Positions 1,597-17,286 of a stretch of 64,000 bases of DNA are shown here, piece after piece. The notes under the pieces were generated by a model, which had not been told where the DNA came from, searched no databases, and saw only the letters and a program-made list of their open reading frames with translations. This stretch comes from Gemmatimonadota bacterium (lineage in GTDB: Bacteria; JAAXHH01): contig VXMB01000014.1 of the NCBI GenBank assembly GCA_009841265.1, forward strand, positions 353,490 to 417,489. The letters are read 5' to 3'. A program made the position numbers and the translations under genes. The stretch's first letter is position 1. Each line of letters starts with the position of its first letter.

Positions 1597-3537
1597 ATGC
1601 GACCACCAGACCCCCGCCGCGTGACCCTCCGCTCGATCCTGATCGGGATCGTCCTGGCCGTTTTCATCAGCCTCTGGATCCCCTACAACGTCTGGGTCGT
1701 GCGCGGGACATTCATGGACTTCGAGCACGTCTCGGCGTCCCTGATGGCGCCCTTCCTGTTCTTCGTCATCGTCGTGAACGGACTGCTGCGCAAGTACCGC
1801 CCCGCGGCCACGTTCACCACGTCGGAACTCCTCGTCATCCTAGCCTTCGGCCTGATCGCGTCCACCGTGCCGTCCCACGCCTTTATGAGCTATTTCATCG
1901 GCGTGATCACCACTCCGTACTATTTTGCATCGCCCGAAAACCAGTGGGTAGAGGTTTTCTTTCAATACCTGCCGGCCTGGCTGCTGGTCGACCCCGAGGA
2001 CCACACCATCCGCTGGTTCTACGAAGGGCTGCCCGCCTACGCCCGGCTGCCGTGGCGCCCCTGGATCGTCCCGCTCTTCTGGTGGGGCACATTCTTCATC
2101 GCCCTGTTCTTCGCGGGGTCCTGCCTGGTGGTGATCCTGCGGAAACAGTGGATCGTCCACGAGAAGCTCAGCTTCCCGCTGGCCCAGGTCATCGCCCAGG
2201 TCATCGACGAACCCGGCGGCCGTTCGTTTCTGCCGCCCTTCATGCGGGGCAGGCTCTTCTGGATCGGGTTCTCGCTGCCGCTGGCCGTGATCGGCTGGAA
2301 CATCGTCGACTACTTCACGCCGGTCGGGGTGATCCCCATCGGACAGCCCTACGCGACGGACCTTGTCATCGGCCACCTGTTCCCCGCCATCAAGATCAAG
2401 ATCAACATCTACCTCCTCTGCTTCGCCCTCTTCTCTCCGGTGGACATCCTGTTCAGCATCTGGGTCTTTCACCTGCTGGCCATCCTCGAGTCCGGCGGCA
2501 TGAACGCCGTGGGCCTGCTAGAAACCGGGGCCTCGCCGGACGCCGCGGTGCGGCTGCAGGAGATCGGCGCCCTGATCGTATTCGTGCTGTGGGGGTTTTG
2601 GATCGCCCGGCGCCACCTGTGGGACGTGGCGCGGAAAGCCCTGGGCCGGGCACCGGAAGTGGACGATTCCGAGGAGTTCTTTTCCTACCGGGCGGCCGTC
2701 CTGGGCGTGTTGCTGGGCGTCGCCTACATGGCGGCCTTCCTGCACATGGCCGGCATGAGTCCTGTCATCATGGCGCCCTTCCTGGTTCTGCTCTTCATCT
2801 TCTACGTCGGCGTGGCCCGGATCGTGGCGGAGACCGGCCTGGTCGCCCTCGACCTGCCCATGAACTCCCACGAGTTCCTCATTCGCGGGGTGGGCTCCTC
2901 CGGCATAGATCCTTCGTCCCTGACGGTCTTTGGCCTGACCAATGCCTTCGCGCGGAACTGGAAGACCTTTACCATGGTCTCCGTCTCCCACATCACCCGG
3001 ATCGGGGACCGGGTCTGGACCGACAAGAAGCTGATGTTCGCCGTGATCTGCGGGGCCTTTGCCCTGGCGTTCCTGATCGGCGCCGCATACACCGTCTATT
3101 CAGGATATGAGACCGTCGGCGCATCGCAGTTCGACCAGTGGGCGTTCACCACCGGGAACATCCACTTCTTCGAGAGCGTCAAGGTATGGATCCAGAACCC
3201 GACCCGGTTGTCGGTCATGGAAACCGCCTGGTTCTTCCTCGGAGGTCTCGTCATGATGGTGCTGATCTTCCTCCGGTACAAGTTCCCGGGCTGGCCGCTG
3301 CATCCCGTGGGACTCACCATTGCCCGCGGGGTGGCGATCGACAACGGCGCCTTCACCCTCTTCGTCGCGTGGGCGGTCAAGGTTCTGCTGCTACGGTCCG
3401 GCGGCATCAGCCTGTTCCGCCGCGCCCAGCCGCTGATCATGGGGATGCTGGTGGGATTCTGCACGGGACTCGTCCTGTCCAACCTCGTGGACATCATCTG
3501 GTTCCCGGGACAGGGCCACCGGATACACGGCTGGTAG
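1597..3537 (+). CDS. polytopic integral membrane protein of unknown function
   Basis: 646-aa ORF with more than 12 hydrophobic helices. No catalytic motif recognised. The competing antisense ORFs are GC artefacts. Confidence 0.5.
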   Translation: MRPPDPRRVTLRSILIGIVLAVFISLWIPYNVWVVRGTFMDFEHVSASLMAPFLFFVIVVNGLLRKYRPAATFTTSELLVILAFGLIASTVPSHAFMSYFIGVITTPYYFASPENQWVEVFFQYLPAWLLVDPEDHTIRWFYEGLPAYARLPWRPWIVPLFWWGTFFIALFFAGSCLVVILRKQWIVHEKLSFPLAQVIAQVIDEPGGRSFLPPFMRGRLFWIGFSLPLAVIGWNIVDYFTPVGVIPIGQPYATDLVIGHLFPAIKIKINIYLLCFALFSPVDILFSIWVFHLLAILESGGMNAVGLLETGASPDAAVRLQEIGALIVFVLWGFWIARRHLWDVARKALGRAPEVDDSEEFFSYRAAVLGVLLGVAYMAAFLHMAGMSPVIMAPFLVLLFIFYVGVARIVAETGLVALDLPMNSHEFLIRGVGSSGIDPSSLTVFGLTNAFARNWKTFTMVSVSHITRIGDRVWTDKKLMFAVICGAFALAFLIGAAYTVYSGYETVGASQFDQWAFTTGNIHFFESVKVWIQNPTRLSVMETAWFFLGGLVMMVLIFLRYKFPGWPLHPVGLTIARGVAIDNGAFTLFVAWAVKVLLLRSGGISLFRRAQPLIMGMLVGFCTGLVLSNLVDIIWFPGQGHRIHGW

Positions 3538-7683: not shown

Positions 7684-7929
7684 TCAGTCGTCCGTGAAGA
7701 AATCCGCGTTGATCTGGATGTAGTTCTGCCATTCGTCCGGAGTGTCTTCTTCGGCGAAAATGGCCTCAACCGGACATTCGGGCTCGCAGGCGCCGCAGTC
7801 TATGCACTCTTCCGGATCGATGTACAGCATCCGTTCGCCGTCCTTGGTGTGAATGCAGTCCACCGGGCATACATCGACACAGCCCTTGTCCATTACGTCA
7901 ATGCATGGCTCTGCGATAATGTAGGTCAT
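7684..7929 (-). CDS. 7Fe-type ferredoxin (3Fe-4S/4Fe-4S)
   Basis: Starts MTYIIAEPCIDVMDKGCVDVCPVDCIH...CIDCGACEPECPV. AGGAG RBS 6 nt upstream. The longer 109-aa ORF call is an upstream extension. Confidence 0.8.
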   Translation of the reverse strand: MTYIIAEPCIDVMDKGCVDVCPVDCIHTKDGERMLYIDPEECIDCGACEPECPVEAIFAEEDTPDEWQNYIQINADFFTDD

Positions 7930-8130
7930 CCGAGTCTCCTCGCTAAAACACGCTTTCTTGAAACAAACCGGCTTTGAGGATGCGTCGAACCCGGTACCGT
8001 CGGGAACAAACAATCAAACCAGGCAACGGTTCCGCCGCCAAAATACCGTAGTATAATAGTCGGCCCGTCATGGCCTGTCAAGCCTGAATTCGTTTGACCG
8101 CGGACCGGTTCTTCCTTAAGTTCAAAGGCC

Positions 8131-8814
8131 ATGCCACCGTTCGCCGTACCCACCGAGCTGGCCCGCCGTTACGACGTCTGTTTCAAGTCCATAGCCATTG
8201 GCAAGTGGGTGAACCTGGACATGCTGGCGGTACGCGATCCCGATGTGCTCATCGACGAAATCGACCCGGAATTCTACGATGAGGATGAACGCCTGCCCTA
8301 CTGGGCGGAGATCTGGCCCTCGGCGATCGGTCTCGGCCGTCACCTGTTCGAGTACCCCGCGCCCGCCGGTTCCCGGATCCTGGAACTGGGCTGCGGCATC
8401 GGCCTGGCCGGTATCGCCGCGGCCGCGGCCGGACTGGCGGTCACCGCGTGCGATTACGAAGAAGACGCCCTGGCCTTCGCCCGGTACAATGCCAGGCTGA
8501 ATGCCCTGGATGGGCGCGTATCATTCCGCTTCCTGGACTGGAGAAACCCGGATCTCGACCGCAAGTACACCATTGTAATCGGCTCGGACATCCTGTACGA
8601 AAGGCCGAATCACGACCCGATCCAGCGCCTGCTCCACGAAACGCTGGAACCGGGCGGCATGTTCCTCGCGAGCGATCCCGACCGCCGGGCGGCCGCCCCC
8701 TTCGTCGAATCCATGATCACCCGGGGATACCGCCACAGCGCGCAGCCCCGAAAGGTGAAATTCGAAAGCAAGGACAACCGCATCATCGTCCATCGGTTTC
8801 TGAAGGAAGACTGA
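8131..8814 (+). CDS. class I SAM-dependent methyltransferase (Methyltransf_16 / protein-lysine MTase-like)
   Basis: 227 aa. LELGCGIGLAGIAAAAAG motif I and DILYE motif. Confidence 0.6.
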   Translation: MPPFAVPTELARRYDVCFKSIAIGKWVNLDMLAVRDPDVLIDEIDPEFYDEDERLPYWAEIWPSAIGLGRHLFEYPAPAGSRILELGCGIGLAGIAAAAAGLAVTACDYEEDALAFARYNARLNALDGRVSFRFLDWRNPDLDRKYTIVIGSDILYERPNHDPIQRLLHETLEPGGMFLASDPDRRAAAPFVESMITRGYRHSAQPRKVKFESKDNRIIVHRFLKED

Positions 8815-10144: not shown

Positions 10145-10792
10145 ATGCCCGACTTTACGATCCTGTTCGTCGCCATGCCGGCGATCCTCTTCGCCCTGAC
10201 CTTTCACGAGTACGCCCATGCCTGGGCGGCGTGGAAACTGGGCGACCCCACGGCGCGCAGCATGGGACGGCTTTCGCTTAACCCCCTGGTGCATCTCGAC
10301 CCGGCCGGAACTATCATGCTGATCATCACCGTCATGAGCGGATTCGGCATCGGCTGGGCGAAACCCGTGCCGGTGGATCCCCGCTACCTGCGCAATCCAC
10401 GGAAGGACATGCTCTGGATCGCCCTAGCCGGGCCGGTGTCCAATATCATCCTGGCCTTCATCCTGGTGGGCGTCTTCACCCACATGCCCTCGAGCGGCGC
10501 CCTGACCGACACGCTGCGTCAGATGGTCCGGTACGGGATCATCATCAACCTGGCGCTGGCCTTCTTCAACATGCTGCCGATCCCCCCGTTGGACGGGTCG
10601 CGGGTCCTGAAGGGACTGCTGCCCCCGGCGCAGGCGCAGCGGTACGGCCAGCTGGAGATGTACGGCCCCATGCTGCTGATCGGCCTGATCATCGCGGACC
10701 AGATGCTCCGGCTGGGCATCATCCGGACGTGGATCGCCGTGCCCGCCCAGATCAGCCTGCGCCTGATGAGCGAAATCTTCAGCAGCTTCTAA
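10145..10792 (+). CDS. site-2 protease family (peptidase M50) membrane metalloprotease
   Basis: 215 aa. HEYAHAW (HExxH) in the first TM helix and an LDG motif. AGGAG RBS. Confidence 0.75.
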   Translation: MPDFTILFVAMPAILFALTFHEYAHAWAAWKLGDPTARSMGRLSLNPLVHLDPAGTIMLIITVMSGFGIGWAKPVPVDPRYLRNPRKDMLWIALAGPVSNIILAFILVGVFTHMPSSGALTDTLRQMVRYGIIINLALAFFNMLPIPPLDGSRVLKGLLPPAQAQRYGQLEMYGPMLLIGLIIADQMLRLGIIRTWIAVPAQISLRLMSEIFSSF

Positions 10793-10803
10793 GCGGGGGT
10801 ATC

Positions 10804-11817
10804 ATGCGGCTAAGCGCCGAGACGGTCCGCCTGGACCTCATCCATCCCTTCCGCATCGCCCGCGAGGTCAGCGATCACAAGCAAAACGTGCTCGTGCGCA
10901 TCTCCGACGGCGAGCTGACCGGCACGGGTGAAGCCGCACCTTCCCGCTACTACGGGGAAGACGCCGGTTCGGTCATCCGGGCGCTGGAGAAAGTGCCGCC
11001 GCTCCTCGGCGGTGATCCCTTCGAACTCGAAGAAACGACCGATCGCCTCGCGTCCGCGCTTCCGGGCGATCCGTCGGCACGCGCGGCCGTGGATATCGCG
11101 CTGCACGACCTGGCCGCACAGCGGCTCGGCGTACCGCTCTACCGGTGGCTCGGCCTCGATCCCGCGAAAACACCCGTCACTTCATTCACCATCGGCATCG
11201 ACGAGCCGGCAGCCGTCCGTCGCAAAGTGCGGGAGGCCGCCGGATACCCGGCGTTGAAGATCAAGCTCGGTTCGGAAAAGGACCTCGAGATCATGCGTGC
11301 GATCCGGGATGAAACGGATGCGCGCATCCGGATCGACGCCAACGCGGGGTGGACGGCGGACCAGGCCGTGGAAATGGTCGGCCGCCTGTCCGAGTTCGGC
11401 GTGGAACTCGTGGAGCAGCCCCTGCCCCCCGGTTCGCCCGCGGACTGGCGCAGGGTGCGGGAGGCGGCGGCCATGCCGGTCTTCGCCGACGAAAGCGTGC
11501 TGGTCTCCCCGGACGTGCCCGCCATGGCCGGCCTGGTGGACGGCGTCAACGTTAAACTGATGAAGTGCGGCGGGGTCCGCGAAGCGCTCCGCCTCATCCA
11601 CACCGCCCGGGCTCACGGGATGCGCGTCATGATCGGCTGCATGATCGAAACCTCCGTCGCCATCACCGCCGCGGCCCACCTCTCCCCATTGGCCGATTAT
11701 GCCGACCTGGACGGCAACCTGTTGATTTCCAACGATCTCTTCAGCGGTGCGGCCGTGCGGGGAGGACGCCTGGTCCTGCCCGAAGGACCGGGAACAGGGA
11801 TAACACCTCGGCCATAA
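10804..11817 (+). CDS. dipeptide epimerase (L-Ala-D/L-Glu epimerase-like, enolase superfamily)
   Basis: Starts MRLSAETVRLDLIHPFRIA. KIKLG and RIDANAGW metal-ligand region, and the C-terminal barrel motif GCMIETS. The ORF-track start at 10729 overlaps the upstream gene, so I chose the ATG at 10804. Confidence 0.75.
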   Translation: MRLSAETVRLDLIHPFRIAREVSDHKQNVLVRISDGELTGTGEAAPSRYYGEDAGSVIRALEKVPPLLGGDPFELEETTDRLASALPGDPSARAAVDIALHDLAAQRLGVPLYRWLGLDPAKTPVTSFTIGIDEPAAVRRKVREAAGYPALKIKLGSEKDLEIMRAIRDETDARIRIDANAGWTADQAVEMVGRLSEFGVELVEQPLPPGSPADWRRVREAAAMPVFADESVLVSPDVPAMAGLVDGVNVKLMKCGGVREALRLIHTARAHGMRVMIGCMIETSVAITAAAHLSPLADYADLDGNLLISNDLFSGAAVRGGRLVLPEGPGTGITPRP

Positions 11818-11929
11818 GCGCCGGGTGTTCGCCGGCGATCCACCGAACCCGTGTAAATCCGCAACCCGATGCCCCGGGCATGCCGGCCGGGTCTTCGCCC
11901 GGCAGCGTCTCATGGTTGTCTTCGAGGCA

Positions 11930-12350
11930 TAAAATACACCAATAAAAATTAGTTTAATCGTATTATAATGAGTTTCGCCTTCACGGCCCCGCCCCGATTT
12001 CCACCCTTGCCGGAACACGACTAGCCCCCCTTGCCTCCGGTCCTGTACCGCAAGTACGGACCCGGAGACCGCGCCCGTCGCAGAAAAAAAGCAAAAAAGT
12101 GTTGACTTGGATAAAACTAATTATTAATTAAGCAAATACGATAGAAAAATAAGATAAATCGAAATGAATATAAATGGTGTCGCTCAGAATAATCCAATCA
12201 TTCGAGACCGGAATTCACACAATCTCCGATCGTTTAACGACTGTCCATTTCACGCAATGCACAGGACGGGAAAGGAGGACATATAGATCCGTGCCTTAAC
12301 GAAGCAGCGATTTTACAGCAAAGAGTAACAATCGATAAACGGGAGACCAT
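11930..12350. other. AT-rich island (estimated 60-65% AT by eye) in an otherwise GC-rich genome, immediately upstream of the collagen-like gene
   Basis: Contains A7 and A6 homopolymer tracts, TTGACT/TAATTA-like promoter elements, and a hairpin ccggtcctgtaccgcaagtacggacccgg. Confidence 0.6.
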
Positions 12351-12351
12351 A

Positions 12352-13758
12352 ATGCATTACCTCATAGTATTTGTGATTGCGTTCGCGCTTTCCGTGATGG
12401 GCTGCGAAGGCAAGACAGGTCCGGCGGGTCCGACCGGCTCGGCGGGTGCCGCAGGTCCGGCGGGTCCGGCGGGTCCCCAGGGATCGACTGGTCCGACTGG
12501 CCCGGCTGGCCCGGCTGGCCCGAAAGGTGACACGGGTGATTCTGGTCCGGCGGGTCCGGCAGGTCCGGCAGGTCCGGCAGGCCCCGAAGGTCCGGCAGGT
12601 CCGGCAGGTCCGCAGGGTGATCCTGGTGACCCGGCCACCATTGATCCAGGCAGCATCGGTAACATCCTGGCGGCTATTCACGAGGTCACGCTGATCCAGG
12701 ATGGCAATGACGATGCCTCCAACACCTTCGCTGGTCCTGGTTTCGCTGAGGGCGATCCGGGTGATGACTGGAATGTTACGCTGGACATCGGTGCAACCAC
12801 TGAGATAGCCGCCACGGCTTCCGCGCAGAACGAGGAGTCCATCCCCGTCGCGTTTGCGTGGGCGTCGGAAGATGCCGAGGTCGCGACGGTCGATGACGGC
12901 GTTATCGAAGGAGTCGGCGCCGGGGAAACCGACATCTCTGTGACCGTTGTGGGACGCGGGATCAAGGTTTCCTTTGAAGTCACGGTCCTTTCGCAGGTCA
13001 AGAGTATCGTTATGGACAGCCCCGCTGACGGGTTCTTCCTCACCAATGGTGAATCTGTAGCCCTTGCAGCCACTGCCTATGACAAAGCTCAAGACGATAA
13101 GACGGCGGAAAGGGACGGCAAAGAGGTTCCAGTCAGTCCATCCTTCATGAGCTCCGACGACAGCGTGATCGAGATCGATGGTTCCGAGGCCAACGCGGTC
13201 GGCGTCGGTTCCGCCAAGATCACCGCGCACTACGGAGACGTTGCGTCCAAGGCGATTACGATCAACGTGACGCCGGGCGGCGATGTTACCCATAAGCTTA
13301 CCTACACCATAATTGCCGCCTCCAAGCGTACCTTCACCAGAATCTATCAGACCGATGGTGAGACGCTGATTTCAAATGATCCGGTTCGCGGCCCGAGTTA
13401 TGATCCTGGGGATGACGCCACCGCGGCTGGTTCCGGCGGCGTGGGCGAGAATGTCGTCTTTACAGTTCAGGTTAGAGAGTACGACTCAGAAGGCAATGCC
13501 CCGATAGACGAAGGCTTCTCCGGCTCCATAACAGCTACAATCCAGCAACAGGGTAGCGTACTTGGCGCCGTCGCCAGCTCGGTTTCTGTAGGCAATCCCA
13601 GCGCCGGCATCGTCCAGGTAACTGTGAATAACGACGGCGATGGTAGCCAAATCACCGGTGAAGGTACGGCGCGCATCATCCTGAGTCTCGACGGAGCGGA
13701 TGACATCGCCCTGCCGGCCGTAATCGTCAAGAAGCAGGTATTGGAGGAACCGAGCTGA
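12352..13758 (+). CDS. collagen-like triple-helix repeat lipoprotein with C-terminal Ig-like (Big_2-type) domains
   Basis: 468 aa. Signal plus lipobox (…ALSVMGC). About 24 uninterrupted Gly-X-Y triplets ([26 protein letters not shown]…). This is followed by beta-rich repeats with Big_2-like signatures ([43 protein letters not shown]). Confidence 0.75.
12418..12636 (+). repeat. 9-nt periodic collagen (GXY) coding repeats
   Basis: Repeated ggtccggc(a/g) units. They encode the G-P-A/G-P-T triplets. Confidence 0.7.
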
Positions 13759-13996
13759 CAACACGCTATCGGATAATCCGGGCCCGTAGCCAGGGTGCAG
13801 ACAGAGTCCTGGAGCATCAATTATAGTTCTGAGGTGTCGCCCGTGGTTATCCAGAGTGAGGGTTGCCTTCGCGTCCCACCCTCGGGTGGTACTATCACCC
13901 TCATGCATTTGTATCAGGCACCTTGGAACGCCTTCCCGTTCGCCCCGAGTAGGAGCCACGGCCACTGAAAGGGGCGAGCGGCCTGAAAGACGAAAG

Positions 13997-14029
13997 CCCC
14001 GGCGCCCGAGCGCGCCGAGGCGTTTTATT
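13997..14029. terminator. putative bidirectional rho-independent terminator
   Basis: Stem ccccggcgc / gcgccgagg (8 of 9 bp) with loop ccgagc. Followed by cgttttatt on the plus strand and ctttcgtctttc on the minus strand. It lies at the 3' end of the lpxH-like gene. Confidence 0.35.
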
Positions 14030-14774
14030 CTGCAGGTTGCTCCTCGTCCCCGTACTTCTCCAGGAACATCTCGCCTTCGCGCAACACGCCATAGGTACCG
14101 TGCCGGATCCAGTCCCCGAGGTTGATATACGCCTTCTCGCCTCGATACTGGAGCGTCGGGCTGTGGATGTGCCCGAAGACCACCGCGTCGTAGCCTTCGT
14201 CGAGCAGGTCGAAGGCAAGGTCCCGGTAGGCTTCCCGCGGATCCCAGTCCGTGGGGGATCCATGACGCCTGCTCATCCGCGATATCAGCCGGCCGATCTT
14301 GAAGCCGCAGTCCGGGTGAATCAGCTGGAACAGGCGGATGCTGATCGCGCTGTGCATGATTTTCGATACCGCGCGGTATCCGCGGTCCCTGGTGATCAGG
14401 CCGTGGCCGTGGGCGACATAAATCCTGCGTCCGTGGTGGGTAGCGGTAAGCGGACCCTCCGCCGTTTCCACGCCGACCTGCTCGTTCAGAAAGGTTCCCA
14501 GCCAGAAATCGTGATTCCCCGGGAGGTATACGACCCGCGTGCCGTTCTCCACGAGCGAGCTCAAGGCGTGCAGTACCGTGTAGTGCTGGCGGGGCACGAC
14601 GCTGCGGTACTCGAACCAGAAATCGAATAGATCACCCACGATGTACAATAGCGGGGTCCCGCCCCTTAAGCTTCGCAGGAAGTCCAGCAACCGGTTTCTT
14701 CTCTCTTCTTCCGCCTCGTAATCGTCGATACCGAGGTGGGCGTCGGAAATGAAATAGACGGGATCTTGGCTCAT
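14025..14774 (-). CDS. LpxH-like metallophosphoesterase (UDP-2,3-diacylglucosamine diphosphatase family)
   Basis: Starts MSQDPVYFISDAHLG. GDLFDFW and GNHD motifs. I took the internal ATG at 14774 rather than the ORF-track start at 14855. Confidence 0.7.
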   Translation of the reverse strand: MSQDPVYFISDAHLGIDDYEAEEERRNRLLDFLRSLRGGTPLLYIVGDLFDFWFEYRSVVPRQHYTVLHALSSLVENGTRVVYLPGNHDFWLGTFLNEQVGVETAEGPLTATHHGRRIYVAHGHGLITRDRGYRAVSKIMHSAISIRLFQLIHPDCGFKIGRLISRMSRRHGSPTDWDPREAYRDLAFDLLDEGYDAVVFGHIHSPTLQYRGEKAYINLGDWIRHGTYGVLREGEMFLEKYGDEEQPAE

Positions 14775-14984
14775 AACAGGATCAGACCCGAAAAAGCACG
14801 GCAACCAAACCAGCCGGTTTTCCGGGCAACAGGGAGTATAACTTTGGATTGACAATTCACCTCGCGTGCGTTAATTAAAATACAATAGGCCATACATTTA
14901 ACTAACGAAATCTTTGGTCGCAATCGCAGTGCGCGAATGCCTCGGATTCGAGGCGTCGGCGTGGTGAACCGGAGAAGAGAACAG

Positions 14985-15407
14985 ATGGCGAGAAAGAAGC
15001 TGTCGTCGTTGACGGACCTGGAAATCGACATCATGAATGTCGTCTGGCGGCTGGGACGGGCGACGGTGCGCCAGATCGTCGATTCGCTTCGAAACCAGCG
15101 TCCCCTGGCGTACACCACGGTACAGACGGTCCTGTCCATACTCACTCAGAAGGGCGTGGTCCGGTATACCCGAGAAGGCCGGGCCTATGTCTACACCGCC
15201 ATCCTGAAACCCGAGGGCGTGCGCCGGGAAACCGTCCGGGCTGTCGTGGACAAGCTGTTCGCCGGATCGCCGCAGTCCCTGGTGCTGCACCTGATCGAAT
15301 CGGACGCGTTGACCGCGGAAGAAGCCGAGAGCCTGCGCAAACTGCTGGACCGGATGGCCTCGGAGTCGGTGGCGTCGGAGTCGAATCCGGAGGCATCGGA
15401 TGCTTGA
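14985..15407 (+). CDS. BlaI/MecI/CopY-family transcriptional repressor
   Basis: MARKKLSSLTDLEIDIMNVVW…TTVQTVLSILTQKG winged helix. It overlaps the downstream M56 sensor gene by 8 nt. Confidence 0.8.
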   Translation: MARKKLSSLTDLEIDIMNVVWRLGRATVRQIVDSLRNQRPLAYTTVQTVLSILTQKGVVRYTREGRAYVYTAILKPEGVRRETVRAVVDKLFAGSPQSLVLHLIESDALTAEEAESLRKLLDRMASESVASESNPEASDA

Positions 15408-17286
15408 TGCCGTCCACGCCATAGGCCTCTTCGAGCGGTTCGGCCGGGAGGTCGTGGACCTGCTGTGGCTTCCGAGCCTTGAAGCGTTGCTTCTCGGCGT
15501 CATGGTCTGGGCCCTGCTATTCGTGAACCCGGGATGCCCAGCCAGGATTCGGCACTTCCTCTGGCTGCTGGTTCTGGCCAAACCGCTGCTGACCCTCGTG
15601 CTGCCCTGGCATGGACCGTTCGAGATCCCGTGGGCGTCGATGGCGAGCCATGGATTGCCCGCCGCGGGCGATCACAACGCCCTGGCATCCGGAGTCTACG
15701 CCGTCGCGGGGCTGGTCTGGATGGGTTTCGCCGGTTTCGGCCTCTACCGCATCGGTTCATCGGTCATCACCATGTCCCGGCGAAGGCGGCGGTCCGTTCC
15801 GGTCGCCGTCCCCCGGGTAAGCGCGCTATTCGATCGGTGCCTGGCCGAATCGGGCTTGAAGCGCAGAGTGGCCCTGAGGGTCTCCGACGAGTTCGAGGTA
15901 CCCGTGCTGATCGCCGCCGGGCGCCCCGCCGTCGTGATTCCCTCCTGGTGCATCCTGGAACTTTCCAGCGCGGAGCTGAGGCAGGTCCTGCTTCATGAGC
16001 TGGCCCACTATGCCCGCCGGGATCACCTTACGGTCTTCCTGGTCCAGTTCTGCAGGTTCTTTTTCTTCTTCCACCCCGCGGTATGGTACGCCGCGTACCG
16101 GGCCGGGATCGAGGCGGAGCGGGCCTGCGACGCGGACGTCGTCCGTGTTTCCAGGCAGCCGGAGCGCTATGCATCCACCCTGTTGAAAGTTGCTGCGGGC
16201 AGGGTCCGGACGCACTGGCAGGCCGCCCTCGAACTGGCGCGGTCGGCCTCCATGGCGGCCCAGCGTATCCGGGACGTGCTCGGTTCGACGGTGAACCGGA
16301 AGGACCGCGCCTTCTTCCCGCTGCTGGCCGCCAGTATCTGCTCGCTGCTCGCGGTCATGCCCCTGTTGCGGCCGGCGGTCGAGGCCCCCGGAGACGTGCC
16401 TGTACCGCCACGAACGAGCATGCCCGGCGAACCGACGGTTCCCGGCCGGGTCGATACGGCGCCCGGTACGCAGCATCACGAAGATCCGGGCCCTGAGACG
16501 CAGGTCGCGCGGGTGGCGGACACGCCCCTGCCGCCGGACCGTCCGGCCAGTCGCAGGACCATGGTAGACGGCCGGCCCGCACCGCGCAGATCCATGGCCG
16601 CCAGGATGATAAAACCGGCGGTACCCCCTCGAGAAGGGATAGTCGAATCCACGAAGCGTGACCGGATCAACCCCGCCGTGCTCGGCCACGCCGCCCCACC
16701 GGTCATCCCGGATCGGACTTTGTCCGCGGGGAACCAGGCCAGGCAGAGACGTATCGAGGTGCAGGGCGTGGGCCGGACCGGCAATGAGCTGTTCGATCCC
16801 GGTACGGTCTCCCTGAGCGCCGGCTATTTCATTACACCGACCCACCAGTTCGGAGGCGTGTTTTCGATTCGAAAGCCCAACGATACGGAAGCATTTGACG
16901 ATACCCGGCGGCCTTCCGGCGCCCCGTACGGCGGTTCCCTCCTTCGGGCCCGGAGACTGGCCGGTTTCGGGACCTCGTCGGCCCAGGGAACGGTGCTTGA
17001 AACCTCAGAGGATGAGCAGGCCGAACGGATCACCCGGATCGGCGCCTTCTACCGGTACAATCTGCTCGTTCCGGGCGATTCCTTCACGCCTTTCTTCGGA
17101 TGGGGCGCCGGCCTGGAGATCAGGCCGCAGAACCGGAACATGACCATGATCGACGCCGGGGTCGGGCTGCGTTACTTCTGGGAACGGCACGTCGCCGTGG
17201 TCGTACAGGCATCCTACCGGAAGGAACTGGATGTCATCTCTCGTCCTTACCCTGAGATGACGCTGGGCTTTTCCGCGATCTTCTAG
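15400..17286 (+). CDS. BlaR1-like M56 peptidase/signal transducer with a proline-rich spacer and a C-terminal beta-barrel-like domain
   Basis: 628 aa. N-terminal TM helices and an HELAHYARRDH (HExxH) M56 motif. Pro-rich region at about aa 330-420. The C-terminus shows alternating hydrophobic strands and ends …LGFSAIF. Confidence 0.7.
   Translation: MLDAVHAIGLFERFGREVVDLLWLPSLEALLLGVMVWALLFVNPGCPARIRHFLWLLVLAKPLLTLVLPWHGPFEIPWASMASHGLPAAGDHNALASGVYAVAGLVWMGFAGFGLYRIGSSVITMSRRRRRSVPVAVPRVSALFDRCLAESGLKRRVALRVSDEFEVPVLIAAGRPAVVIPSWCILELSSAELRQVLLHELAHYARRDHLTVFLVQFCRFFFFFHPAVWYAAYRAGIEAERACDADVVRVSRQPERYASTLLKVAAGRVRTHWQAALELARSASMAAQRIRDVLGSTVNRKDRAFFPLLAASICSLLAVMPLLRPAVEAPGDVPVPPRTSMPGEPTVPGRVDTAPGTQHHEDPGPETQVARVADTPLPPDRPASRRTMVDGRPAPRRSMAARMIKPAVPPREGIVESTKRDRINPAVLGHAAPPVIPDRTLSAGNQARQRRIEVQGVGRTGNELFDPGTVSLSAGYFITPTHQFGGVFSIRKPNDTEAFDDTRRPSGAPYGGSLLRARRLAGFGTSSAQGTVLETSEDEQAERITRIGAFYRYNLLVPGDSFTPFFGWGAGLEIRPQNRNMTMIDAGVGLRYFWERHVAVVVQASYRKELDVISRPYPEMTLGFSAIF

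Follow-up and report, generated by a model that had tools for sequence, protein, structure and literature searches.

A predicted collagen-like, Ig-domain lipoprotein gene of a Gemmatimonadota bacterium belongs to a recombining family with conserved 5' and 3' elements

We analyzed a 64,000-nucleotide (nt) stretch of a Gemmatimonadota genome (assembly GCA_009841265.1, contig VXMB01000014.1, positions 353,490–417,489; hereafter the window, in whose coordinates all positions are given) around a gene that a preliminary description had presented as a collagen-like, immunoglobulin (Ig)-domain lipoprotein behind an AT-rich island. The open reading frame (ORF) spans 12352–13758 on the forward strand, as do all features below unless stated otherwise, and encodes 468 amino acids (aa). 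It occupies a slot with the gene order M50 protease, dipeptide epimerase, collagen-like gene, LpxH (reverse strand), BlaI and a BlaR1-like protein. The same arrangement was seen in 14 other metagenome-assembled genomes (MAGs), making 15 genomes with the present one, and in those 14 the interval between the epimerase and LpxH also keeps an AT-rich upstream region. Because the flanking housekeeping proteins are 84–98% identical in aa sequence across these MAGs, they represent one clade whatever their submitter labels. No mobile-element genes flank the locus, no recombinase gene was seen adjoining the slot, and tblastn and nhmmer found no further copy of the gene family in the window, which holds a single member. 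As detailed below, the tail of this member and most of the RNA element that follows it come from another paralog lineage than in the 14 related genomes.

The predicted protein begins with a signal peptide and lipobox (12352–12405, with Cys18) that is near-invariant in the family even at synonymous sites (ATGCAYTAYCTCATA). Following the hydrophobic h-region, the residues LSVMGC fit the lipobox pattern [LVI][ASTVIM][GAS]C, and Gly17 and Cys18 are invariant in 21 aligned proteins; from its sequence, the product is predicted to be a lipoprotein lipidated on Cys18. The long uninterrupted Gly-X-Y (GXY) run noticed earlier is borne out: it extends from Gly17 to Pro94 in 26 triplets, 25 of which follow Cys18 and form a collagen-like stalk (aa 20–94, 12409–12633, delimited with Pfam and Tandem Repeats Finder) with 17 triplets of the form Gly-Pro-X. 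Pfam Collagen (PF01391) matches this region at 49.7 bits against a cut-off of 27.2, which places the protein among bacterial collagen-like proteins on its GXY segment, and Tandem Repeats Finder resolves a 9-nt period of 22.4 copies at 12416–12616. Scores against the NCBIfam equivalogs SclB, Lcl and SclA stay far below threshold (56.1 bits vs 325, 45.7 vs 500 and 45.7 vs 400, respectively) and come from the GXY region only. Given a triple-helix rise of 0.286 nm per residue, a 75-residue triple helix would span ~21 nm, if the protein is trimeric as bacterial collagens are.

The rest of the protein (aa 95–468 with the stop codon, 12634–13758) is a variable tail, composed of a linker conserved in the family alignment (TIDP..LGNILA.IHH..LIQDG), which is a candidate trimer-nucleation site, and three to four Ig-like beta-sandwich domains. 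An AlphaFold2 (AF2) monomer model computed from 21 family sequences (mean predicted local distance difference test score 82) begins with an N-terminal helix corresponding to the signal peptide and continues as an extended GXY segment; after a linker region of poor prediction quality at aa 83–107, all-beta domains follow at ~108–215, ~216–310 and 311–468. When compared with the PDB using Foldseek, the model matched strings of Ig-like beta-sandwiches, among them the S-layer proteins SbsC, EA1 and Sap (E down to 2e-12) and Leptospira LigA Big_2 (E = 1e-10); further matches were phage Hoc, titin and tail proteins of phage SU10. The Big_2 domain itself (PF02368) is marginal in the window protein (aa 141–199, 22.7 bits vs a gathering score of 22.8) and exceeds the cut-off in some paralogous tails (25.2 and 26.8 bits). 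Thus, in the proposed lipoprotein with Big_2-like folds, the lipobox and the Ig fold stand while the Big_2 assignment is borderline and one feature of the signal peptide, discussed below, is unusual; 'collagen-like, Ig-domain lipoprotein' is a fair description. The suggested codon-usage comparison showed the gene to be atypical, with a third-position GC content (GC3) of 0.63 against a window mean of 0.80 (standard deviation 0.056), or ~3 standard deviations below. The only ORF with lower GC3 in a crude window gene set is an antisense artifact, and low GC3 characterizes the family throughout.

Searching with the non-collagen part of the protein (aa 95–468) returned 35 proteins of 30–63% identity, plus one 100%-identical fragment of the same gene. 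All full-length homologs begin with MHY[LF], carry PF01391 and keep a common head, consisting of the signal peptide, the lipobox and the start of the collagen, to which widely different tails are joined. A scan of one genome per GTDB species placed 65 loci in ~20 MAGs; the family comprises 85 non-redundant genes by regular-expression scan, or 92 with a looser pattern, with up to 9 distinct copies per assembly. Submitters labeled the MAGs Gemmatimonadetes, Candidatus Latescibacterota or 'bacterium', and one protein Zixibacteria, yet the family occurs in a single clade of uncultured MAGs only. The GXY run is in frame in all relatives, which speaks against a low-complexity artifact, and it varies in length as had been anticipated from its slippage-prone 9-nt repeats: the 71 full-length genes contain 15–47 uninterrupted triplets (median 27), and every indel in the collagen-region alignment is a whole number of triplets.

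Clustering at 45% identity separates the tails into at least 28 groups, mostly of divergent Ig-like domains; one class is a Trypsin_2 peptidase. These Trypsin_2-type serine peptidases occur at locus L001 (4383–5459 and 7767–8681, both reverse strand), at L032 (from 6124, forward) and at L044 (from 5910, forward), and because they carry the same signal peptide, lipobox and collagen, the head appears to be a general display module. Copies are often clustered in both orientations. L002, for example, contains four within 13 kb, with repeated flanks that are 78–96% identical, and L001 contains two convergent copies that are 98% identical over their first 1003 nt and divergent thereafter. At L002, the repeated flanks reach 500–870 nt past the stop codon of each paralog and include recurrent ORF calls of 53 aa (338–499, 3243–3404, 7848–8136 and 10666–10827).

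Several MAG contigs end at family genes, where short-read assemblies break, and family genes are often mis-called as truncated ORFs. The same is true of the only other assembly of what is probably the present strain, L068 (ENA ERZ23491992 scaffold_1121), which was assembled independently from short reads: its position 1 corresponds to approximately window position 12471, inside the collagen repeat, so that it yields a 248-aa, 100%-identical fragment call rather than a full triplet count. Because L068 and several MAG contigs break in this way, the family is systematically under-assembled and mis-annotated.

Upstream of the gene, the segment 12081–12351 has a GC content of 36.9%, with a minimum of 23% in 100 nt, compared with 63.2% for the window, and it is the window's lowest-GC stretch at the 100-, 200-, 300- and 400-nt scales. 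The preliminary description estimated an island of roughly 400 bp at 35–40% GC; the AT-richness holds but the length does not, the lowest 400-nt window having 43.2% GC because a 95-nt segment of 70% GC separates two AT patches. The distal patch (11926–11985, 30% GC) contains TATAAT and is partly conserved in slot orthologs, and the GC-rich spacer (11986–12080) holds a local hairpin (CCGGTCCTGTAC..GTACGGACCCGG) and is unalignable with close relatives. An A7 tract (12084–12090) and an A6 tract (12093–12098), both correctly noted at the outset, are the sole A/T runs of at least 6 in the 64 kb. Far from being common in front of the window's genes, the island is exceptional there, as other intergenic promoter regions have 42–49% GC and are no longer than 243 nt. 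Within the family it is the rule: the last 300 nt upstream of the 85 family genes have 33–56% GC, vs 51–65% for the respective loci.

The A tracts lie directly 5' of a putative sigma-70-type promoter (12102–12129), with a −35 element TTGACT (12102–12107), a 16-nt spacer and a −10-like TTAATT (12124–12129). This assignment is based on an alignment of 12 orthologous upstream regions, in which a block (A)nCACAAAAAAGTGTTGACT-N16-TAAATT is nearly invariant in the 11 orthologs of the same head type, the window having TTAATT instead of TAAATT. Within the tract segment (12084–12098), CAAAAAAGTG is conserved in the orthologs at the position of an UP element, and AAAAAAGTG and its placement resemble the proximal subsite of such an element (AAAAAARNR). 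An AT-rich inverted repeat of 17 nt, imperfect at 88% complementarity (11943–11959 and 12110–12126), brackets the GC-rich spacer, the A tracts and the −35 element. Similar weak repeats are present in L012 and L030 and absent from 8 other orthologs, and the repeat is probably a chance occurrence in AT-rich DNA; an invertible promoter was rejected, as this one imperfect repeat has no conserved counterpart in the 11 orthologs.

An island of this kind could mark a horizontally acquired gene that is silenced by an H-NS/Lsr2/MvaT-type protein, switched by slippage at the A7/A6 tracts, or both, as had been proposed. Its record-low GC content and the only long homopolymers of the window would fit, as would a GC3 ~3 standard deviations under the mean and a tail that has clearly been exchanged. 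We nevertheless regard this explanation as very unlikely. The region is conserved at the slot in 14 MAGs between housekeeping genes and is found upstream of paralogs generally, the low GC content is family-wide, the locus lacks flanking mobile-element genes, and the DNA that was exchanged came from within the family, not from outside. Slippage at the homopolymers fares no better as a switch, since the tracts lie 4–18 nt upstream of the −35 element and not in the promoter spacer or coding sequence, and 10 of the 11 orthologous promoters preserve the length of the proximal A6. Because nearly every copy sits in the same kind of cassette, the AT-rich island is better described as a promoter together with the 5' half of a leader.

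This AT-rich leader is predicted to be ~215 nt long (~12136–12351, from an inferred transcription start). RNAalifold returned no consensus fold for 52 diverse family leaders, and Rfam gave no match in the island; a known RNA or riboswitch was therefore rejected. A hairpin (CTGTCC..GGACGG, 12241–12269), invariant in 13 slot orthologs, directly precedes a Shine-Dalgarno (SD)-like box, GGAAAGGAGG, which is followed by nnATATAG (12269–12286) and lies 83 nt before the ATG. The corresponding block, GGAAAGGAGGnnATATAG, a perfect SD-like sequence, is common to all head types. Of the 85 genes, 73 have the box, 71 of them at a distance of 73–84 nt from the ATG and two at 123 nt from a mis-called internal start. 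The translational start itself has a true SD, GGGAG (12341–12345), 6 nt before the ATG and within an invariant block (ACGGGAGA). Spanning the true SD and the first codons, TAAACGGGAGAnnnnnATGCAYTAYCTCATA is conserved in all head types and invariant even at synonymous sites. Across the family, neither a conserved start codon nor an upstream ORF follows GGAAAGGAGG, and an upstream ORF ending at the TAG of ATATAG was ruled out, as a start codon is lacking at that place in the largest head type. GGAAAGGAGG thus corresponds to a putative STAB-SD, a class of SD-like leader sequences that are complementary to the 3' end of the 16S rRNA and unused for initiation. In the other head types, a different promoter-like block is found ~125 nt upstream of the box, and hence a leader of ~200 nt is general in the family.

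Immediately downstream of the gene we identified a family-specific structured RNA of ~260 nt in the 3' untranslated region (UTR; 13768–14029). Its helices P1, P3, P5, P6 and P7 were derived by hand on an alignment of 31 sequences (A4), which contains the invariant stretches GGAUAAUCCGGG.CCCGUAG, UAUCC, GCAUUUGU, CUUCCCGUUCG, GAGUAGGAGC and GGCCACUGAAA; GAGUAGGAGC and CACUGAAA are invariant loops. We presume that an internal loop, AGUA/GAA, is loop-E (sarcin-ricin)-like and that the inner hairpin carries a UNCG-type tetraloop. Of the two strands of P6, the 5' one falls within P1 and the 3' one outside it, so that P1 and P6 would form a pseudoknot. Variable hairpins and a terminator (GCCCCG..CGGGGCUUUU) complete the element. 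In A4, 94.4% of the cells are paired, vs 36–51% when the 3' partners are slid by 1–3 columns. Thirteen pairs are changed on both sides, a number reached in 0 of 500 shuffles (mean 6.2), with compensatory pairs in P6 (6 of 10), P7 (4 of 11) and P3 (2 of 5). At one pair of P6, 12 sequences have GU, 12 have UG and 7 have AU, and the frequency of such G-U/U-G alternations indicates an RNA read from the sense strand.

The element is tied to the gene family. When the 300-nt 3' flank of the window gene was used as a BLAST query, 52 of the 70 other full-length family genes proved to be followed by conserved blocks. A profile search with A4 (nhmmer) gave 89 matches in 628 kb, one of them in the window (13771–14026); the ~80 matches that were checked all lie 3–30 nt after a family gene or fragment, or are partial matches somewhat further on, and the remainder belong to duplicates of the L001 and L002 loci. 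Scanning JGI metagenomes for the exact pattern returned 16 loci, 15 with the full element and one chance match. In all 12 metagenome loci with enough upstream sequence, the element follows by 3–29 nt a large ORF that matches the family as far as it is visible; 8 of these ORFs keep the family head and the other 4 run off the start of the contig. Rfam 15 gave no match at E≤1 over 11500–14200 on either strand. To our knowledge, 3' UTR structures specific to one gene family are rare in bacteria. The element begins 3 nt after the stop codon in the closest placements and terminates in an intrinsic terminator, and co-transcription with the gene is predicted from this arrangement; most simply, it would act as a 3' stabilizer or control element. 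The GC-rich hairpin and U-run at its 3' end (13994–14029) appear to form a bidirectional terminator, serving the collagen-like gene on the forward strand (then GTTTTATT) and the convergent LpxH gene on the reverse strand (then TTTCGTCTTT).

Other roles for the 3' region were considered and set aside. A hammerhead or twister ribozyme was rejected because the order of motifs does not fit and Rfam was negative. Diversification by a diversity-generating retroelement, which the conserved 3' end had brought to mind, was rejected because the protein C-terminus is conserved and the 266-nt gap before LpxH is too small for a reverse transcriptase. Pairing between the two UTRs, CUUCCCGUU with the SD region AACGGGAG, involves two nearly invariant sequences, and the variant type in L002 is not compensatory, leaving this as an idea only. 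A 16-nt complementarity (88%) between the invariant lipobox codons (TGGGCTGCGAAGGCAA, 12398–12413) and a stretch within the 3' element (13863–13878) is inconsistent across element types. A long-range 5'–3' pairing is possible, although without covariation support.

The distribution of the 3' element also bears on whether the gene encodes a phage-derived, tail-fiber-like protein left by a prophage. Phage fibers often contain collagen repeats and Ig-like domains, and phage SU10 tail proteins and Hoc are among the structural matches. However, IMG/VR contained no copy of the 3' motif, its only protein matches are ordinary tail-fiber collagen repeats without the lipobox head, and in all 15 genomes housekeeping genes lie on either side of the slot. 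A phage origin is highly improbable on this evidence.

Comparison of the window with its closest relatives revealed a mosaic. Nucleotide identity is 92–94% up to 11816 (the flanking genes), undetectable in the distal intergenic region (11817–12084), 72–79% from ~12084/12218 to 12620 (promoter, leader, signal peptide and collagen), again undetectable across the tail (12620–13770), and ~83% from 13771 onward (3' element and downstream genes). At the protein level, the 374-aa window tail is 30–36% identical to those of the other slot residents, which are 51–96% identical among themselves, and 52–59% identical to paralogs elsewhere (L001, L002, L004, L006 and L007). The 3' element follows the tail in this respect. 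Its body is 93% identical to that of the paralog L006, vs 76–78% to the slot orthologs, whose element bodies are 91–99% identical to each other, while its last ~70 columns are 91–96% identical to all slot orthologs. Because the tail and the body of the 3' element match another paralog lineage whereas the flanks match the slot, we conclude that a tract of ~1.35 kb (~12620–13980) was replaced by recombination. The left breakpoint falls within the collagen repeats and the right one within the conserved 3' domain of the RNA element. Paralogs may exchange their tails with the conserved head and the 3' element acting as homology arms.

These breakpoints could also be read differently, with the conserved ends marking the limits of a DNA cassette that duplicates or recombines, where they would be recognized by a recombinase and conserved at the DNA level. 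The coincidence of the ends with recombination breakpoints is what this would predict, and it would accommodate the paralog clusters in both orientations with their repeated, 78–96% identical flanks and the tendency of short-read assemblies to break at family genes. Against it, the many compensatory G-U/U-G wobbles are meaningful only in a sense-strand RNA, the element runs from 3 nt past the stop codon to an intrinsic terminator, and no recombinase gene lies beside the slot. We consider such a cassette quite unlikely.

Taken together, these observations are probably best explained by a recombining family of lipid-anchored, collagen-stalked variable surface proteins, each encoded within a conserved cassette of promoter, leader and 3' RNA. 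According to this model, the mature N-terminus at Cys18 would lead two residues later into the 25-triplet collagen segment, which as a trimer would form a rigid stalk of ~21 nm that holds a rod of three to four Ig-like domains off the membrane. The adhesin or surface-fiber role suggested in the preliminary description is plausible in this light; a function as surface adhesin or coat protein is what the architecture points to. The cassette consists of an AT-rich putative promoter (here of the head type with an A tract and TTGACT-N16-TAAATT), a leader of ~200 nt that has no shared fold and carries the GGAAAGGAGG box ~80 nt before the real SD, and the ~260-nt structured 3' UTR RNA ending in a terminator. 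Nearly every family copy examined lies in a cassette of this kind.

A different placement of the same protein would make it a periplasmic structural lipoprotein, whose trimeric ~21-nm rod, anchored in one membrane, acts as an Lpp-like spacer or tether or carries cargo in the periplasm, for instance the trypsin-like peptidase tails. Glu at position +2 after the lipobox, the absence of a recognizable surface-export signal, a Trypsin_2 peptidase as one tail class, and the envelope-related neighbors LpxH, M50 protease and BlaR1-like protein are all compatible with this placement, as is the calculated stalk length, which approximates the width of a periplasm. We judge it unlikely, however, in view of the at least 28 tail clusters, the presence of up to 9 copies per genome and the swapping of tails, a pattern typical of diversifying selection from outside; moreover, a three-fold range of stalk lengths (15–47 triplets) is ill-suited to a fixed periplasmic ruler.

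Several points weigh against the surface-protein and cassette model. The n-region of the signal peptide is an invariant MHY that contains neither Lys nor Arg, an unusual feature in a lipoprotein; the PROSITE PS51257 rule calls for one of these residues. We infer lipidation, surface localization, the triple helix and expression, and the low GC3 is unlike that of a classically highly expressed gene in a high-GC genome. The −10 element in the window is weak (TTAATT), and a consensus scanner consequently made no call for this promoter. Among the RNA features, helix P1 is essentially invariant and thus without covariation evidence, and the same applies to the invariant leader hairpin. P5 is formed by unrelated sequence pairs in the three element types (AUGAGG/CCUCAU, CAGGGC/GCCCUG and CGGGAC/GUCCUG); it had to be excluded from the statistics because the 3' strands of the different types are shifted by one column in the alignment. 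Concerted evolution, rather than function, could account in part for the conserved cassette ends. Finally, a sponge or coral origin of the MAGs is only suggested, by the record labels IRC1_bin, APA_bin, SB0665_bin, Plut_88884, ENGE20-1 and MKWU01.

By analogy with known systems, the SD-like box and the 3' structure would probably be mRNA stabilizers or translation-control elements; a protective, STAB-SD-like role for the box is suggested with low confidence. We can only tentatively go further and propose that the ~260-nt RNA is a new, pseudoknotted cis-acting class that, together with the box, controls the fate of the mRNA, and that the conserved cassette ends drive the exchange of Ig-like tails, the whole constituting a surface-variation system. 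If this were so, the fate in question could be the stability, the translation, or the coordinated or mutually exclusive expression of a repertoire of collagen-stalked lipoproteins, and apparently sponge-associated symbionts could manage recognition by host or phage through surface variation.

In Pasteuria ramosa, collagen-like proteins (PCLs, e.g., Pcl7) have a GXY stalk followed by a variable C-terminal globular domain that determines host attachment (PMC10987987). The present family resembles them in combining a GXY stalk with a variable C-terminal globular domain; the PCLs differ in being spore-surface proteins of a Firmicute, not lipoproteins, with other C-terminal domains and no homology outside the GXY region. 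We know of no shared 5' leader and 3' RNA cassette in the PCLs. Use of an uninterrupted GXY triple-helix region as a stalk is also common to Streptococcus Scl1/Scl2, Legionella Lcl and Bacillus BclA, but the anchoring differs (LPXTG sorting for Scl, the exosporium for BclA, an N-terminal lipobox here), as does the globular domain, which is C-terminal and Ig-like in the present protein. According to a reference within PMC10987987, repeat-number polymorphism in BclA alters fiber length.

The Vlp, Vsp and Vsa lipoproteins of Mycoplasma and the Vsp and Vlp lipoproteins of Borrelia are paralogs with a conserved 5' UTR and prolipoprotein signal peptide, divergent repetitive mature regions, and recombination among them. 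Their known switches (poly-A in the promoter spacer, site-specific inversion, an expression site) were not found here, they lack a collagen stalk and a structured 3' RNA, and the organisms are unrelated. For the untranslated regions, the closest parallel is the cry3A STAB-SD of Bacillus thuringiensis, where 30S binding at an upstream SD-like sequence protects the mRNA against a 5'–3' exonuclease and, with the cry 3' retroregulator, stabilizes it (PMC4113751). Both systems combine a structured 3' end with a long leader in which a non-initiating SD-like sequence lies well ahead of the real SD; unlike in cry, the box here is ~80 nt before the ATG in a predicted ~215-nt leader, and the 3' element is a multi-helix structure of ~260 nt and not a simple stem-loop. 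The best structural matches of the tail, Leptospira Lig and the S-layer proteins SbsC, EA1 and Sap, share strings of Ig-like beta-sandwiches, which are surface-exposed in those proteins; they are 11–20% identical, with low TM-scores as only single domains superpose, and have no collagen stalk. The best analogs are therefore the Pasteuria PCLs for protein logic and the mycoplasma and Borrelia lipoproteins for genetic logic, and the present family is a member of neither group.

It is an open question how sponge symbionts are distinguished from food bacteria and how they survive within a phagocytic host. A clade-specific, lipid-anchored, collagen-stalked repertoire with rapidly exchanged Ig-like tips is a concrete candidate for the surface that faces host or phage. 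Collagen-like proteins go unmentioned in two published genome descriptions of sponge Latescibacterota and PAUC34f, and none of the top matches listed in a full-text search linked 'collagen triple helix' to sponge symbionts. The conserved head motif offers a handle for locating every copy of the family, and the 3' element is a well-supported structured RNA, absent from Rfam and tied to one gene family.

Two observations concern the neighboring genes. The longest ORF of the dipeptide-epimerase homolog starts 64 nt inside the preceding M50-like gene (10729–10792), and its true start is probably further downstream; in the epimerase alignment, L029 and L067 align from residues 22–25 only and the other 12 loci from residue 1. 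Just downstream of LpxH (14937–17286), a BlaI/CopY-family repressor gene overlaps the start of a gene for a BlaR1/M56-like membrane protease. This pair is kept in all slot orthologs, with the BlaR1-like protein far more divergent (61–91% identity) than BlaI (~86–96%).

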